Of a stretch of DNA of 64,000 nt, positions 1-32,900 are shown in pieces. The notes beneath the pieces are model-generated. The model searched no databases, had not been told where the DNA came from, and worked only from the letters and a program-made list of their open reading frames with translations. The position numbers were made by a program, and so were the translations under genes. The stretch is from Escherichia coli (GTDB lineage: Bacteria; Pseudomonadota; Gammaproteobacteria; Enterobacterales; Enterobacteriaceae), in NCBI RefSeq assembly GCF_046105845.1, contig NZ_CP151004.1. One strand, written 5' to 3'. Numbering within the stretch: the stretch's first letter is position 1; each line of letters starts with the position of its first letter.

Positions 1-3000
1 GTGGTGTATTCCACATTGTTAATCGTAACGGTAAGCGGCGTGCCTTCAGCCAGCCCCGAGCTACTGCCGCTGACCACCAGCGCCTGCCCGTGCTCGATGA
101 TATTGACCACATCATCGCCTGCCACCGTATCGACCCGCAGACCGGGCAGATTGGCGTCGATGGTGATATCCCGCGTGCCGCTGCCGGTGTTGCCGTTTTG
201 ATTGGTGACCGAGGCGCTCACCGTTAAATCGCCATTACCCAGCGCCTGAATAGCGTCCGCCGGAATGCTCACGCTCCAGCTTAATCCCGGCTGTACGGTG
301 GTGGTGTAGGTATTGCCACCCAGCGTAACGGTTACCGCGTCGCCAACGGCGGCTCCAGTCACCTGCCCGCTGATGGTTTGCGCGACGCCCGCTTCGGCGG
401 CGTTAATAATATCGTCGGTTGCCACCGGGTTAATGGTCACGCCGGGCAGCGCGCTGTCAACCAGCACGTTATGGCTGGCGGTGGCGCTGTTGCCGATATT
501 ACTCGTCACCGCCGCCGTTACCGTGTAGTTGGCCTGGCCCAGTGCGGTTACCGCCGATGCCGGAACGGTGACGCTCCAGTTGCCGGAGGCGTCGGTCGTG
601 GTGGTGTAATTTTGCCCGTTCAGCGTCACGGTGATGGCGGTATTGGCTGGCTGATCGCTGGTACCGGTAATCTGGACATCAGCCCCTTTTTCGCTGGCGT
701 TTATCACATCATCGCCAGCAATGGTGTTAATACCAATTACTGGCGCGGCGGTATTGACCGTGACAGTCAGTGACTGGCTGCCCGTGTTTCCGGCGCGGTC
801 AGTCACTGACACGTTGATCGGATAACTGCCATCCACCAGTCCGCTGACAACGGAAGCCGGAACGCCCAGGCTCCAGTTGCCGGAACCATCCACCACCGTG
901 GTGTAATCCACATTATTCAGCGTCACGGTGACGATATCGCCCGCCTGAGCGCCAGTAACCGTGCCGCTGATGATTTGCGCCTGGGTGTGTTCCGGCGTGT
1001 TGATGACGTTATCGGTCGCCACCGGATTAATGGTTACCACCGGCGGCGTGGCATCGACCAGCGCCACGCGTGAGACGCTGGTCGGGTTACCGGCGATATC
1101 GTTCACGCTGGCGGTGACGGTGGCGTTGCCGTCAGCCAGTGCGCCAACGTTGGCGGCGGGAACGGTCACGCTCCAGGTGCCGTCTGGCTGCACGACGCCC
1201 TGGTACGTCTGCCCGTTCAGCGTCACCGTTACCGTCTGCCCCGGCTGGGCGTCGGTGGTGCCGGTGATTTGCAGATCCTGACCACTTTCGGCGGCGTTAA
1301 TGATGTTATCAGCGGTCAGTGGATCGATACTTAAGGCCGGGGCCTGGCTGTCGACGGTAATGGTGCGAGAGGTGTTGCCGGTATTGCCGCTGAGATCCGT
1401 CACAGAAGCGGTAATCGCCACCGCGCCGTCAGGCAGATTTCCCATCGCGGCGGCAGGTACCGTCAGACTCCAGGAGCCATCAGCCTGCACGGTAGTAGTA
1501 AAACTCTGTCCAGCCAGGGTTACTGTGACGGTTTGTCCTGTCTCGGCCTGTTGAGTGCTACCGGTAAGGGTCAGTGGCGCACCTTTTTCTGCGCCACTGA
1601 TAATGTCATCGCCGGAGACGGTGTTAATGGTGATTAACGGAGAGACACCGACCAGCGTGATTGCTCGAGACGCCGCGCCGGTATTTCCTGCAGTATCTGT
1701 CACGGTGACGAAAATCGTATTGGCTCCGCGATCCAGCGTGCGGGTTACCGCTGGGTCCAGCGCCACATTCCAGCTGCCATCTGCCAGCACAATGCCCGTC
1801 AGGACATGAGTGCCCAATTTCACCGTTACCGTATCGCCAGGAGAAGCACCGCTGACTTGTCCGGAGATGATCTGCGCGACGGCCTGCTCAGCATTATTAA
1901 GAATATCGTCGCCCGCTACGGTATTAACACTGACCACGGGTGCTGAGGTATCTACCGTGAAATTCGCGCTGTGGCTGGTGCTGTTCCCAGCCCGATCGCT
2001 GACACTGGCATTGACAGCGTAATTACCCTCCGCCAGCGCCTGGACTTCCGTGGCTGGCAGCGTCACTTGCCAGGTTCCGTCGCTACCGACGGTTGCTGTA
2101 TGGCTTTTCCCGTTGACGGTCAGTGTTACGGTTTGCCCCGCTTCTGCATTCGACGTGCCGCTCAGTACCAGCGCGACGTTATGTTCCGCAGCACTGATGA
2201 TGTTGTCCTGAGCGATGGTGTTGATGGCAAGCGTTGGCGGTTGGGTATCGACCGTTAAAAGCTGCGCGCCGGTGACCGTATTGCCTGTGGCGTCTTTCCC
2301 GCTGACCAGCACTGCCTGATTCCCTTCGCCTAACGCCTGTGCATCGGCGGTCGGCACCTGCACGCTCCAGGCACCGTTAGCGCCTACGCTGGTGGTGTAG
2401 GTTTTGCCGTTTAGCGTAACGGTGAGTTCTGTTCCCTGCGCCAGATGGCTACTGGTACCAGAAAGCGTAAACCCGGCGGCCTGTTCGCTGGCGTTAATAA
2501 TGTTATCGCCTGCGGTGGTGGCAACCTGCACGCTGGCCTGACTATTGTCGATGGTTAACGTTATCGAACCGGCGTCAGTGATGGTACTGCCGACAATTTG
2601 CACCACTGACCAGGTATGTTCACCTGCACTTTGCGTGGGTAACGAGACACTCCAGTGACCGTTGTTGTCTACCTGAGTACTGGCAATAGTATTGCCGTTA
2701 CTGTCTTTAATCTGAATAGTCGCCCCCGCCTGCCCGCTGCCGCTAAAGGTTGGCGTGGTATCATCGGTGATGTCATTGGTGGCGAGAATGCCGCGCTGAT
2801 CGCCCTGATTATCGATAACTAAAAATGATGGTGTGGCAACACCCGGTTCAGGCACAGGCTCAGCGGGTGGCGTAGGGTTATTAATCACTTCCGTTTTCGA
2901 GTCGCCATCACCACCGCTTGCCAGCAGTGCACCAAGCGCACCACCACCTACCGCCGCCCCCGCCAGCCAACCCCACGGGAAGGCGCTGGTCTGAGCAACG

Positions 3001-3368
3001 GTATCAAGAAATGGCGCAATGCTTTCAATCGCAGTGGTCTGGGCAGTCAGTTCTACGGGGGCTAATCCACCCGCAGCAGTATCGGCGAAGGTGACATGGG
3101 TTAGCTGTTGCCCATCGGCAAACACCAGTTCCGATTGTTCAGCTGTATTCGCCGCTTGCAGGAAATAACCGTTGCAGCGGATCACCGTGCCGTCCTGCAT
3201 ATAGATCAGCAGGTCATTTCCTTCACGGACGTAACGCGCAACGGCAGAGGCCTGAGCATGAACCTGCACCACGGAAGGCTCATAAATAACAACCGTGACG
3301 TCGCCAGGATTAATCAGCGTTTGTTTGACGGATGTTTTACGCGAAATAACATCAATAATCAGGCTCAT
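1..3368 (-). CDS. Giant tandem-repeat Ig-like adhesin, probable type I secretion substrate; 5' portion only, gene continues past window start
   Basis: Manual minus-strand translation from ATG at 3368-3366 (AGGAA 8 nt upstream) reads MSLIIDVISRKTSVKQTLINPGDVTVVIYEPSVVQVHAQA... with no stops over the stretch checked (3061-3368); downstream shows ~100-aa Thr/Val/Gly-rich repeats. Absent from ORF track because no stop lies in the window. Confidence 0.7.
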   Translation of the reverse strand, partial: MSLIIDVISRKTSVKQTLINPGDVTVVIYEPSVVQVHAQASAVARYVREGNDLLIYMQDGTVIRCNGYFLQAANTAEQSELVFADGQQLTHVTFADTAAGGLAPVELTAQTTAIESIAPFLDTVAQTSAFPWGWLAGAAVGGGALGALLASGGDGDSKTEVINNPTPPAEPVPEPGVATPSFLVIDNQGDQRGILATNDITDDTTPTFSGSGQAGATIQIKDSNGNTIASTQVDNNGHWSVSLPTQSAGEHTWSVVQIVGSTITDAGSITLTIDNSQASVQVATTAGDNIINASEQAAGFTLSGTSSHLAQGTELTVTLNGKTYTTSVGANGAWSVQVPTADAQALGEGNQAVLVSGKDATGNTVTGAQLLTVDTQPPTLAINTIAQDNIISAAEHNVALVLSGTSNAEAGQTVTLTVNGKSHTATVGSDGTWQVTLPATEVQALAEGNYAVNASVSDRAGNSTSHSANFTVDTSAPVVSVNTVAGDDILNNAEQAVAQIISGQVSGASPGDTVTVKLGTHVLTGIVLADGSWNVALDPAVTRTLDRGANTIFVTVTDTAGNTGAASRAITLVGVSPLITINTVSGDDIISGAEKGAPLTLTGSTQQAETGQTVTVTLAGQSFTTTVQADGSWSLTVPAAAMGNLPDGAVAITASVTDLSGNTGNTSRTITVDSQAPALSIDPLTADNIINAAESGQDLQITGTTDAQPGQTVTVTLNGQTYQGVVQPDGTWSVTVPAANVGALADGNATVTASVNDIAGNPTSVSRVALVDATPPVVTINPVATDNVINTPEHTQAQIISGTVTGAQAGDIVTVTLNNVDYTTVVDGSGNWSLGVPASVVSGLVDGSYPINVSVTDRAGNTGSQSLTVTVNTAAPVIGINTIAGDDVINASEKGADVQITGTSDQPANTAITVTLNGQNYTTTTDASGNWSVTVPASAVTALGQANYTVTAAVTSNIGNSATASHNVLVDSALPGVTINPVATDDIINAAEAGVAQTISGQVTGAAVGDAVTVTLGGNTYTTTVQPGLSWSVSIPADAIQALGNGDLTVSASVTNQNGNTGSGTRDITIDANLPGLRVDTVAGDDVVNIIEHGQALVVSGSSSGLAEGTPLTVTINNVEYT

Positions 3369-5163: not shown

Positions 5164-6456
5164 TTATACGGTTTTATTGCGCTTCATGACCATTGCCACA
5201 ATAAGGCTGAGTAAGATTGCACCAATAATCCATATCAACGCACGGCTGCCCTGGGACCACAGGCTGTAGATAAAGCCAACGATCACCAACAACATCACCA
5301 ACGTACCTACGATAAGAATCGGCAACGAGGCGTGAATATCATGACGCAGGCGGATCGCCACCACAAACACCGCCAGATAGCAAATCAAAAAGGTGGCGCT
5401 GGCAACGCTGGCGAGTGAGCCTAAATTTAGTGCCGCCGTCATCAGCATAATCAACACCACGACAATGATGTTGCCCCAGGTACTCTGCCGCCACAGGGAT
5501 TTATTCATTAGCTTCGGCAGTTCGCGTTCGCTGCCCATGTTGTCCATGATGTTAAACACGGCGAACAGGTTCGCGTTGATGGCTGAAGCCGTCGCCAGTA
5601 AAGCGCCGATGACGACGATCACATAACCCACATGCCCGAGCAGCGGAGAAGCAGCCTGCGCTACGGCGGTATCGGCATATTTTTCTAACTCTAATGCCGA
5701 TACATCGCTAAGCAAAACCAGCGCCAGCGAGATATAAAGCAATGTGGTAACGCCAATCGCCACCAGAAACGCCCGTGGCATAATGATCTGCGGATCTTTC
5801 ACTTTATCCGCCGCGTTCGCCATCATGCCAAAGCCCGCATAGGCAAGGAAGGTTATCCCGATACAGGAGAAGAACGCACCGGAGCTGGGGGGCGCAGAGA
5901 CGGAAATATGCGCCGGTTGCAGCGACCAGACACCGGCAATAATCAGCAATAACAGGATCATCATTTTAATGCCGACGAGGATCACTTCCAGCCGCCCTAC
6001 CGCATGGTTGCTTAAGGAGTTGAAAAGCGTCATCACCGCAATGATCCCCAACGCGTAGAGCAATATAAGGTGCTCCTCCTGACTGCCTTCATGCAAAAAC
6101 TGCACGGCATAAGCGCCAAAAGCACGGGCGACCATGGCGATGCTCACCGCCAGCGTCAACAGGTACAATAACGAGAGTGCCAGCGAAAAGACGCCGTTGC
6201 CTAATCCGCGACGAAAGAAGTCGATAATACCGCCATTGCTGGGATAGCTCGCCCCCAGGCGCGCATAGGCATAACCGGAAAACATCGCCACAATACCGCC
6301 AAAAGCAAAGGCGACCCAGGTCGAGGCTTCCATTAGCAACGCAGCCTGCCCCAGCAGCGCGAAGATCCCCGCCCCCACCATTGCCCCAATACCGATGGAA
6401 ACGACGTTCCATAGACCGAGGGGTTTGTTATCGTTATTACCTTCCGTGTTCATCAT
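5164..6456 (-). CDS. ybaT: APC-family amino acid transporter YbaT
   Basis: 430-aa polytopic membrane protein; matches recalled YbaT and is directly downstream of glsA. Confidence 0.9.
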   Translation of the reverse strand: MMNTEGNNDNKPLGLWNVVSIGIGAMVGAGIFALLGQAALLMEASTWVAFAFGGIVAMFSGYAYARLGASYPSNGGIIDFFRRGLGNGVFSLALSLLYLLTLAVSIAMVARAFGAYAVQFLHEGSQEEHLILLYALGIIAVMTLFNSLSNHAVGRLEVILVGIKMMILLLLIIAGVWSLQPAHISVSAPPSSGAFFSCIGITFLAYAGFGMMANAADKVKDPQIIMPRAFLVAIGVTTLLYISLALVLLSDVSALELEKYADTAVAQAASPLLGHVGYVIVVIGALLATASAINANLFAVFNIMDNMGSERELPKLMNKSLWRQSTWGNIIVVVLIMLMTAALNLGSLASVASATFLICYLAVFVVAIRLRHDIHASLPILIVGTLVMLLVIVGFIYSLWSQGSRALIWIIGAILLSLIVAMVMKRNKTV

Positions 6457-28582: not shown

Positions 28583-28734
28583 AAGTGTATGCCTGCTTGT
28601 TACGGTGGTACTCACGGCGCGTTTTAAACGTATCAAAAGTAACAGTTGTTTAACCTTTGACCGCCTGCGCCTGTGCTCGAAAACGCCAGAATGTACTGGC
28701 TGTACGCAATAATTGCAACTGCGATTGTTGTGCT

Positions 28735-29112
28735 TCAGTGCTTTTCTTGCTTTTCATCAATCACCGGAATTCGCCACATATAAAAAAGCAAACAGGCGAG
28801 AATTACCAGCAACATGATGCGCACCCATGGCATCTGGACGAACCACAGAGAAATTGCAAACGTGAGCAAAATAAGCAAAATCGCCCGCGGTTTGACGCCG
28901 CGCGGCATCGCATGATGTTTCTGCCAGAAACGTAGATAGCTGCCAAACCATGAGCGGTACAGCAACCAGGCGTGAAAGCGCGGGGAAGAACGGGCAAAGC
29001 ACCAGGCCGCCAGCAGGATAAACGGCGTCGTCGGTAATACCGGTAATACCACGCCCAGCGTACCCAGCACTACCGCCAGCCAGCCAATGATGATTAAAAT
29101 GATTCGTTGCAT
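28735..29112 (-). CDS. ybaN: Inner membrane protein YbaN (DUF454)
   Basis: 125-aa hydrophobic ORF in the conserved position. Confidence 0.9.
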
Positions 29113-29181
29113 ATTGAGTGTTGTCAGCTTACAGAGTGGCTACTTTAGCATAACAATTATCATTTTCATTGAGGTCTTATC

Positions 29182-29709
29182 GTGAAAACCGCCCTGCTGC
29201 TGGAAAAACTGGAAGGACAGCTCGCTACGCTGCGTCAGCGTTGTGCCCCGGTAGCGCAATTTGCCACGCTAAGCGCCCGTTTTGACAGGCACCTTTTTCA
29301 GACTCGTGCGACAACACTGCAGGCTTGTCTCGATGAGGCGGGCGATAATCTGGCTGCGCTTCGTCATGCCGTTGAGCAACAGCAACTGCCGCAAGTCGCC
29401 TGGCTGGCAGAACATCTGGCGGCGCAACTGGAGGCTATAGCGCGTGAAGCCACAGCCTGGTCGCTACGCGAGTGGGACAGTGCGCCACCGAAAATTGCCC
29501 GCTGGCAGCGTAAACGTATTCAGCATCAGGATTTTGAGCGGCGGCTACGTGAGATGGTAGCCGAACGTCGAGCCCGCCTGGCGCGGGTGACCGATCTCGT
29601 GGAACAGCAAACGCTGCATCGTGAAGTGGAAGCCTATGAAGCGCGCCTGGCACGCTGCCGCCATGCGCTGGAAAAAATCGAAAACAGGTTAGCGCGTTTA
29701 ACCCGCTAG
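29182..29709 (+). CDS. priC: Primosomal replication protein N''
   Basis: 175-aa ORF matching recalled PriC. Confidence 0.92.
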
Positions 29710-29722
29710 CAATGGAGAAAGT

Positions 29723-29887
29723 ATGTCACTGGAAAATGCCCCTGACGATGTCAAACTGGCTGTCGATTTGATTGTGCTGCTGGAAGAAAATCAGATCCCA
29801 GCCCGCACCGTGCTGCGCGCGCTGGATATTGTGAAGCGTGATTATGAAAAGAAGTTACAGAGCGATGAGGCTTCGCAAAGCGAGTAA
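29723..29887 (+). CDS. ybaM: Small protein YbaM (DUF2496)
   Basis: 54-codon [57 protein letters not shown] read by hand; below the ORF-track cutoff; GGAGA 7 nt upstream. Confidence 0.8.
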
Positions 29888-29925
29888 AAAATAAAGGGCG
29901 GCATCACTGTCGCCCTTTATTGTCC

Positions 29926-32900
29926 TTACCCTACCGCTGGTGTCGGATCGTCGCCTTTGTAGTCGCGTTTGACTTCCGTCACCTCATCGCCCTTCTCGTT
30001 GTGCAGATGCACTTCAAGCTGGTTAAAGGCAATGTTGATATCGTTTTCACGGCACAGCTGATCGATAGTACGGTTCAGCTCATCGACAGTACGGCTACGG
30101 TCACGCAGTTCACGCACATACAGACGCAGCTCATGATCCAACGTGCTGGCACCAAACGCCGTAAAGAAGACTTCCGGCATTGGTTCGTGCATCACCCTTG
30201 GGTGCTCAGTCGCCGCCTTCAGTAACACTTTACGCACTTTTTCCAGATCGGAGCCATAGGCCACGCCGAGACGGATCACCAGACGCGTAGTAGTGTCAGT
30301 CAACGACCAGTTGATCAGACGCTCGGTAACAAACGCTTTATTCGGGATGATCACTTCTTTGCGATCGAAATCGGTAATCGTTGTCGCACGAATACGGATC
30401 TTACTTACTGTCCCCGAGAAGCTACCAATGGTTACCGTATCGCCAATACGCACCGGACGTTCGAACAGAATGATCAAACCGGAGACGAAGTTACCAAAAA
30501 TTTCTTGTAAACCAAAACCAAGACCTACGGATAATGCTGCGGCCAGCCACTGGAGTTTATCCCACGAGACGCCCAGCGATCCGAACACCGTCATCGCACC
30601 AACGGCAATAATGATGTAGTTAAGGATGGTAGTAATGGCATACGACGCGCCCTGGCGCATATTCAGTCGCGAGAGCACCAGCACTTCCAGCAAACCAGGC
30701 AGGTTGCGAATCAACGCCCAGGCCACCATTGAGGCGATAATCGCAAACAACAGACTGCCCATGGTGACGTTTTTCACCACCGCAGCACCAGCTTCAGTAC
30801 CGTTGTAATGCCAGAGCGTGATGCTGTCCAGATAGCTGAACACGGTGATCAAATCGGACCAAATTGCCCAGAACATGACACCGAACAGCGCAAACATCAG
30901 CAACATGGTAATACGCAGCGTCTGCTGGTTAACCTGCTCCAGTGCAATGGTGGGTTCTTCCGGCGGTTCGGCACCTTCTGCGCCCTCTTTCACCAGATTC
31001 TGCCGACGCGCCAGCGCACGACGCCAGGCGATACGCCGCGCCGCTACGCTTAAGCCGCGCAATACCGTCTGGTACAGCAGGTTCCAGATGATCACCAAAT
31101 AAACGGTTTCAATCCAACGCCCGGAGAGGCGCAGCGTGGTGTAGAAATAACCCGTGGCGGTCAGCACCATCAACGCAATCGGGATAATCGACAGTACGGT
31201 AATGGTGACCAGTCGCATGGTGTGCGACTCTTTATCACGCCAGCTTTCGCGGCACATCGGCCATACCAGGAAGGCAATCAGCAGCAGGTTGAAGAAAATC
31301 ATCGCCTGCCCCAGCACATCATCCATCAGATGCAGCGGGGAAAGTTCTGCCACCACAGACCAGAAATGGATAGGCAGCAATGCGAGACTGATGCGGACAA
31401 TTTGCCGACGCCAGTGGCTGGTCTGCTGTTCCGGCATACCAAAGTGACGCACGGCAACGCCGTTTTTCTCCAGTACCTTCCAGCACAGGCCAAACACCAG
31501 CCAGAAAATCGCCAGTTTTTTACTGAACGACCATAGCAGTTCGCTGATGTTGAGCTGCATGGTCAACAGAATCAGGCCAACCGCGAGAATAATCAGGCAC
31601 ACCGGCAGCGCACGGATCAGGTCGATAAGGATCGCTTTTGGTGTGTTGAGCTGGCTGTCGTTACGCAGGGAACCCACAGCGGAAGCCAGTTTTTGTTGAT
31701 ACGCTTTCAGCCAGCCCAGACGCCAGTGGATCAGCCCGGCAATCAACAGCAGCGGCAAACCGGCGAGGAAAGCGATAAAAACGGCAGGCCAGGCTTTTTC
31801 CCAGTTCACCGTGATTTTCATCGACTTAAATTCATCTTTCAGGCTTTGCGGGAACGCTTTGATCCAGTCCCAGTCCATTGGACGGTTACTGTTCACCCAA
31901 AAGATTTGCTGAGTCAGGATGGATTTCAGGTTTTTCGACACACTCATTAACTGCTGCTGGTTGATTTGCAGGTTAATGGCCATCATCAGCTGATTACCCA
32001 ACTGTTTGTTGAGTTGATCCAGCAATTCGCGACGCATATCAACCACTTGCAATAACGCATCGTGAACTTCGCTGTTGACTTCGTTGGCGTGACCTTCTTC
32101 CAGTTTGTTGACGAACGCATCGCTCTGGAAGAGTGCATCACGCTGCTGGTTGACTTCAAACTGTTCGAGACGCAAATCCGCGATGCGGTTGGTCATGTTT
32201 TCCAGTTCATCCGCCGAGGGCAGCGTTTGTTGTTGCTGGTAAAGGATACGAGACAACAGCAGGCTGCCCTTCAGGACGGCAATCTGCTCTTTAATATTGC
32301 GTTCCGATTGCAGCGCCCGCTCCAGCCAGTTTTTGACTTTAATGTTTTGCTGCATCAACTGATTACCGTTTTCAGTCGCGGTAATCAGACGCTGACTTAA
32401 CTGCTGGTTAATTTCCAGTTCCTGCTTCACCAGCGGATTAGCCTGAATACGCGCGGCTTCATCCGGGGAGACGGCTTCCTGCGCCGTTTTTTCGGTTAAA
32501 GTCAGGCGCTTGCTGTTTACTGCTTCTTGCAACAGCTGCAACTGGTGCTCCAGACGGGCGCTGTTCGCCGTCACGTAATCCCGTTGCTTTTGCAAGGTAT
32601 CCTGTAAGACTGTGTTCCCTTCCAGGCTTTTACGCTGTTGATCAATCTCGGCATTCAGCAAAGCCTGCTGAGCCTGCATTAACACTTTCTGGCTGGGACG
32701 TAAGGCAGTCTCGCCGACATCAGTCCCATCCAGACGACTGCGAATTTGTTGCAGCTGCTGCGAAGCGTTATACATCGCATTTTGCACGCGTTCGGGCTGC
32801 GTCTGTAACGAAACCAGCTGGCTGTTATAAGACGCCAGATCGTTTTGTGCGTTTTGCAAATCGTCCAGCGCCTGGGCAACGCGAGTTTCCAGCTGGCGCA

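Follow-up and report, generated by a model that had tools for sequence, protein, structure and literature searches.

The short open reading frame behind priC is rsmS (ybaM), a small Escherichia coli gene that probably assists CsrA

The open reading frame at 29723..29887 on the plus strand of the window, the 64,000-nucleotide stretch of E. coli DNA that we analysed, is rsmS (ybaM, b0466 in K-12), and it is practically certain both that this identity is correct and that the frame is a genuine protein-coding gene. The assignment draws on family models, the annotation of the same locus in strain KE55, a frame-specific dN/dS comparison and an AlphaFold2 prediction. The gene already has its name (rsmS is the current one), its RefSeq annotation and its publications, so its occurrence here is no discovery; the sequence-only reading that singled out the frame was correct, and what it found is ordinary. 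We place the probability of our overall explanation, in which rsmS is a small gene of E. coli whose product helps the global regulator CsrA (RsmA), at roughly 0.9.

The frame spans 165 nt, with an ATG at 29723..29725, 54 sense codons and a TAA at 29885..29887. Its ATG is the 14th base beyond the priC stop, in agreement with the earlier description of a 54-codon ORF that starts 14 bp past priC, and the SD-like GGAGA reported upstream is present at 29714..29718. The predicted protein matches Pfam PF10689 (DUF2496) at 84.7 bits, where the gathering score is 25, residues 2–44 aligning with positions 1–43 of the 43-position profile, and it matches NCBIfam NF008266, the RsmS equivalog model titled “pleiotropic regulatory protein RsmS,” at 94 bits, the cutoff being 76, with residues 1–46 covering the full 46-position profile. 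By megablast, window DNA from 29150 to 29950 is 100% identical to E. coli KE55, in which the identical 165-nt CDS bears the gene name rsmS in RefSeq and the same product title as the NCBIfam model (WP_000051143.1). The same query found the locus once each in 5,424 of 5,426 complete E. coli genomes, always annotated in the order priC, rsmS, mscK. The window gene thus has every property of an RsmS/YbaM (DUF2496) family member that can be read from its sequence.

In K-12 MG1655, ybaM (b0466) occupies the same position after priC and encodes a product of 53 aa. The two proteins share 85% identity in alignment: residues 1–45 are the same save for S28R, whereas the C-terminal tails differ (QSDEASQSE in the window, TRDDEAEK in K-12 YbaM). 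The spacer to mscK differs as well, measuring 38 bp in the window versus 211 bp with REP-like repeats in K-12. The identification of the peptide as YbaM in the sequence-only reading is therefore borne out by genomic position, family models and RefSeq annotation alike. That reading also called the gene missed, which is right for the ORF track that accompanied the DNA and wrong for the public records, which annotate rsmS. Its absence from the track is explained by the 60-residue cutoff, since the ORF is listed when the minimum is set to 30 aa and absent at the 60-aa default. The surrounding 40 kb (copA ... htpG, recR, ybaB, dnaX, apt, ybaN, priC, rsmS, mscK, acrR, acrAB, tomB-hha ...) is ordinary E. 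coli core chromosome.

The size of the ORF alone does not lift it above chance, because 45 ORFs of at least 30 aa occur within 3.5 kb around rsmS in our ORF listing; frames of this length are common, and that abundance is what would favor a chance frame in the priC 3′ untranslated region that makes no protein. rsmS does stand above chance, because purifying selection is specific to its frame, its Shine-Dalgarno sequence is conserved and its family scores exceed curated cutoffs. We compared codons 1–46 across ten orthologous loci, which besides the window and K-12 were those of E. albertii, Klebsiella, Salmonella, Trabulsiella, two Citrobacter lineages and two relatives from metagenomes. In the rsmS frame, the mean pairwise dN/dS was 0.116, and variable alignment columns were distributed 19/10/42 over codon positions 1/2/3, while the two other frames of the same DNA gave dN/dS values above 2 and contained 22–27 stops. 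All ten loci keep the N-terminus MSLENAP, carry GGAG 4–7 nt ahead of the ATG and have the priC stop 11–16 nt ahead of rsmS. Within the species, 1,600 E. coli genomes show only 90–95% DNA identity to the window across the 151-nt rsmS core, and despite this divergence the E. coli RsmS protein variants that we retrieved are almost invariant over the core. Purifying selection confined to the rsmS frame, together with a conserved start codon and Shine-Dalgarno sequence, a start peptide retained across genera, stops in the other frames, passage of the curated family models and a confident AlphaFold2 fold obtained from the alignment, leaves a chance frame with a negligible probability, and the frame-specific dN/dS comparison effectively excludes a non-coding reading.

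Folding gives less structure for the initiation region (29695–29735) than for shuffled versions of it (dG −1 kcal/mol, z +2.1), as expected for an accessible rsmS start. The same lack of structure (z +2.1) ruled out a structured CsrA-type leader at the Shine-Dalgarno sequence. Some metagenomic RsmS calls carry a 3-residue N-terminal extension (MES-MSLEN...) that begins at an ATG within the Shine-Dalgarno stretch; the corresponding ATG of the window (29713) lies 10 nt ahead of the rsmS ATG and out of frame, so the extension is impossible here. Neither ribosome profiling nor direct evidence at the protein level turned up for E. coli YbaM in the literature that we searched. Judged by sequence comparison, the evolutionary evidence that rsmS is translated is strong, and the active species would be the protein rather than the RNA, the formal proof of which is evolutionary only.

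RsmS is a protein of 54 aa and 6.1 kDa with a pI of 4.5, containing 12 acidic versus 7 basic residues for a net charge of −5, and AlphaFold2 predicts helices at residues 8–22 and 27–52 with a pLDDT of 92. The earlier description of an acidic helical peptide accordingly holds for both its composition and its predicted structure. With high confidence, the predicted fold is an acidic antiparallel two-helix hairpin. An alignment of 91 diverse family members shows A13, A33, and D40 to be invariant and L3, A6, L12, V14, D15, L16, I17, L20, E21, L34, and K44 to be at least 90% conserved, all of which the window protein carries; the charged positions D15, E21, D40, and K44 vary little or not at all. 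These residues fall within a highly conserved core (residues 3–45) with the motif KLAVDLIxLLE...ALxIVxxD and a later K, and the C-terminal tail past residue 45 is variable, polar, and unconserved. Acidity is shared by the family, 99% of the 91 members being net negative. A search of PDB sequences with the single protein and with the 91-sequence profile returned no meaningful match (the best, at E 0.23, was the JIP3 coiled coil), and the PDB copy searched holds no solved structure for any sequence relative of RsmS. The model has no specific structural relative and appears as a generic helical hairpin, which is uninformative about a binding partner.

The gene lies in an apparent transcription unit with priC. 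ybaN starts at 29112 on the minus strand and priC at 29182 on the plus strand, leaving a divergent intergenic region (29113..29181) that is the presumed location of the priC-rsmS promoter. priC (29182..29709, plus strand; primosomal replication protein N′′) is annotated as such in KE55 and K-12 and scores 174.8 bits with Pfam PF07445 and 334.7 bits with NCBIfam NF007500. Its TAG at 29707..29709 is followed on the same strand by a 13-nt spacer to rsmS, within which the Shine-Dalgarno GGAGA ends 4 nt before the ATG. A consensus scan of 28900–30100 found no plus-strand sigma-70-like promoter, neither ahead of priC nor inside it; this negative is weak evidence against an internal promoter, because the promoter of priC itself also escaped the scan. 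Published genetics in relatives point to co-transcription of rsmS with priC from a promoter ahead of priC: when a transposon carrying a terminator sits in priC of Pectobacterium atrosepticum, it has a polar effect on rsmS, and rsmS complements the defect while priC does not (PMC6418279). A promoter upstream of priC is accordingly presumed for E. coli by analogy with the Pectobacterium genetics and with an E. coli complementation cited in the same paper (PMC6418279), and reviews of replication restart list a priC-ybaM operon (PMC5778457).

At the other end of the gene, a hairpin with a 14-bp stem (29890..29921) begins three nt past the rsmS stop. It folds with a dG of −21.0 kcal/mol on the plus strand (z −5.4) and −20.6 kcal/mol on the minus strand (z −4.5), where a U-run follows the stem, and a terminator scan placed a terminator-like site at 29897–29911. 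mscK, on the minus strand, converges on the hairpin with its stop at 29926, and the hairpin looks like a bidirectional intrinsic terminator common to convergent rsmS and mscK. An Rfam scan of 28600–30300 gave three matches, two to MicX and one to SR1 antisense, none of which reached its gathering score (18–20 bits versus 45–75); each lies over the terminator hairpin and was taken as chance. A second hairpin, across the priC stop (29688–29710), was no better than shuffles in context; the scan also scored it as terminator-like on the minus strand, giving two such sites versus 1.4 expected.

Homologues, whose absence the sequence-only reading had named among the grounds for refutation, do exist: one search recovered 377, and a scan through an entire library of 1.84 billion 50%-identity cluster representatives recovered 179 representatives at E ≤ 1e-3, a number that marks RsmS as a small family. 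Named members occur in the Enterobacterales (Escherichia, Citrobacter, Klebsiella, Salmonella, Trabulsiella, Yokenella, Pragia, and Arsenophonus) and beyond them in Pseudoalteromonas and Moritella. Adjacency of priC and rsmS was seen at ten loci in at least six named genera, Moritella included, with rsmS directly after priC on the same strand in K-12, KE55, Citrobacter, Klebsiella, Salmonella, E. albertii, Trabulsiella, and Moritella. The linkage thus reaches outside the Enterobacterales, the two Moritella genes being adjacent at 2318–3165 of their locus. In Pseudoalteromonas, priC and rsmS belong to one co-directional cluster (1200–3177) with a gene of the histone-deacetylase family and a ComFB gene between them, and in one uncultured lineage, an rsmS homologue (3001–3219) stands alone beside a divergent TetR gene, and priC is absent from the 3 kb around it. 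The far side of the gene is more variable. The spacer between rsmS and mscK is occupied in Citrobacter (locus 2238–3161) by an Rpn-type gene (Transposase_31/HTH_Rpn_C) of 307 aa and in Klebsiella (locus 2547–2732) by an HTH_Rpn_C remnant of 61 aa; in Salmonella (locus 2169–3202) it runs to about 1 kb without a called gene, and in Trabulsiella (locus 2236–3207) it contains a 323-aa ORF that matches no Pfam family.

Within E. coli, the 3′ end of rsmS and the spacer to mscK (29858–29925 in the window) exist in two forms. The form in the window, with a tail of QSDEASQSE or QSDETSQSE and the 38-bp spacer, is present in 1,345 of 5,426 complete genomes (∼25%), and the K-12 form, with the tail TRDDEAEK and ∼170 extra bases that include two REP-like palindromes, in 4,056 (∼75%). 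Comparison of the K-12 locus (5400–5640) with that of E. albertii (2130–2400) showed that E. albertii carries the K-12 form, and the window-type tail resembles its counterparts in Citrobacter and Salmonella, whose last residues are SQTD and SQTE. Given these distributions, both forms look old, or else look to have been swapped by recombination. priC is likewise unusually diverse in E. coli: 29 of 5,424 genomes carry an allele at least 99% identical to that of the window, 1,869 fall at 90–95%, and the nearest alleles, strain 042 among them, are ∼99.1% identical. Across all 801 bases of the query, identity of 99% is reached by only 2 genomes. That the two tail and spacer forms might be alleles that set CsrA activity differently by lineage, or that the priC-rsmS pair might couple replication-restart capacity to the Csr regulon, are speculations to which we attach very little weight.

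What is known of RsmS function comes from relatives. Monson et al. (2019) isolated rsmS (ECA1172) in P. atrosepticum as a suppressor of an rsmB mutation, and both transposon and clean rsmS mutants suppress rsmB (PMC6418279). In rsmS rsmB double mutants, production of plant-cell-wall-degrading enzymes and of the quorum-sensing signal is partly restored, as is that of carbapenem in P. carotovorum, and rsmS single mutants overproduce the same outputs and are hypervirulent; loss of rsmS thus partially bypasses the loss of a CsrB-type sRNA and de-represses RsmA-repressed targets (PMC6418279). Overexpression of rsmS likewise raises these outputs, even in an rsmB mutant, so the dosage of the gene matters (PMC6418279). 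As a tentative model, Monson et al. proposed that RsmS makes the binding of RsmA (CsrA) to target mRNAs efficient (PMC6418279). In Serratia, expression of type I and type III cas genes is raised in an rsmS mutant; the rsmA mutation is epistatic to that in rsmS, and the action of RsmS depends neither on RsmB nor on PigX/CsrD (PMC8450108). For the E. coli proteins, PMC6418279 cites a single high-throughput yeast two-hybrid match between YbaM and CsrA, which it calls unvalidated, and a ybaM mRNA half-life that is shorter in csrA51. The Serratia paper describes the interaction as “shown in Pectobacterium” (PMC8450108), a wording that overstates its source, which contains only the cited E. coli two-hybrid match (PMC6418279). 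Tests of RsmS/YbaM function come from Pectobacterium and Serratia, and our literature search found no experiment in E. coli itself that ties ybaM to Csr outputs. By analogy with these relatives, a role for rsmS in the Csr pathway of E. coli is probable.

To account for these observations, we propose that RsmS could be an acidic adaptor of two helices in direct contact with the CsrA/RsmA dimer. At the right stoichiometry, it would make CsrA repression of target mRNAs more efficient, and at levels too low or too high, CsrA activity would be lowered. Direct binding to CsrA as the mechanism is a tentative proposal that we hold at somewhat less than even odds. FliW in Bacillus and Campylobacter and CesT in EPEC are protein antagonists of CsrA. 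If the two-hybrid match is real, RsmS would resemble them in tuning CsrA by contact rather than by sRNA titration, a resemblance in the way of working only; we looked for similarity of RsmS to FliW or CesT in sequence or fold and found none. A further comparison can be made with Hha/YmoA acting on H-NS, which, like the proposed RsmS, are small helical modulators of global regulators.

The parallel with FliW and CesT could be taken further, such that the acidic hairpin of RsmS mimics RNA, occupies the basic RNA-binding surface of CsrA, and antagonizes it. The almost uniform acidity of the family and the near invariance of D15, E21, and D40 are what such an RNA mimic might be expected to display, and the rise of RsmA-repressed outputs upon rsmS overexpression, seen even in the rsmB mutant, fits as well; nevertheless, the rsmS deletion phenotype runs in the same direction as loss of rsmA, which makes an antagonist unlikely. 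We consider it still less likely that RsmS works mainly outside Csr, with PriC in replication restart or in envelope stress, and that the Rsm phenotypes are indirect. The persistence of the priC-rsmS linkage from the Enterobacterales to Moritella, and in looser form to Pseudoalteromonas, would suit a partnership with PriC, but in P. atrosepticum a priC plasmid fails to complement while rsmS alone succeeds (PMC6418279), and the homologue of the uncultured lineage does without a priC within 3 kb. As for the envelope, a ybaM mutant of E. coli reportedly has a fitness defect when the envelope is stressed (Hobbs 2010, as cited in PMC6418279), and ybaM appears in the gene table of a Keio-collection Congo-red (curli) screen. 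Altered CsrA activity would also produce envelope-stress and curli phenotypes, however, and the epistasis of rsmA over rsmS in Serratia (PMC8450108) argues against a function mainly outside Csr. We therefore retain the reading of rsmS as a helper of CsrA/RsmA.

At the level of annotation, a 60-residue ORF cutoff hides genuine conserved small-protein genes such as this one, and a short ORF close behind a gene and equipped with its own Shine-Dalgarno sequence is worth checking. For the biology of E. coli and its relatives, RsmS/YbaM would represent an under-studied input to the global regulator CsrA.
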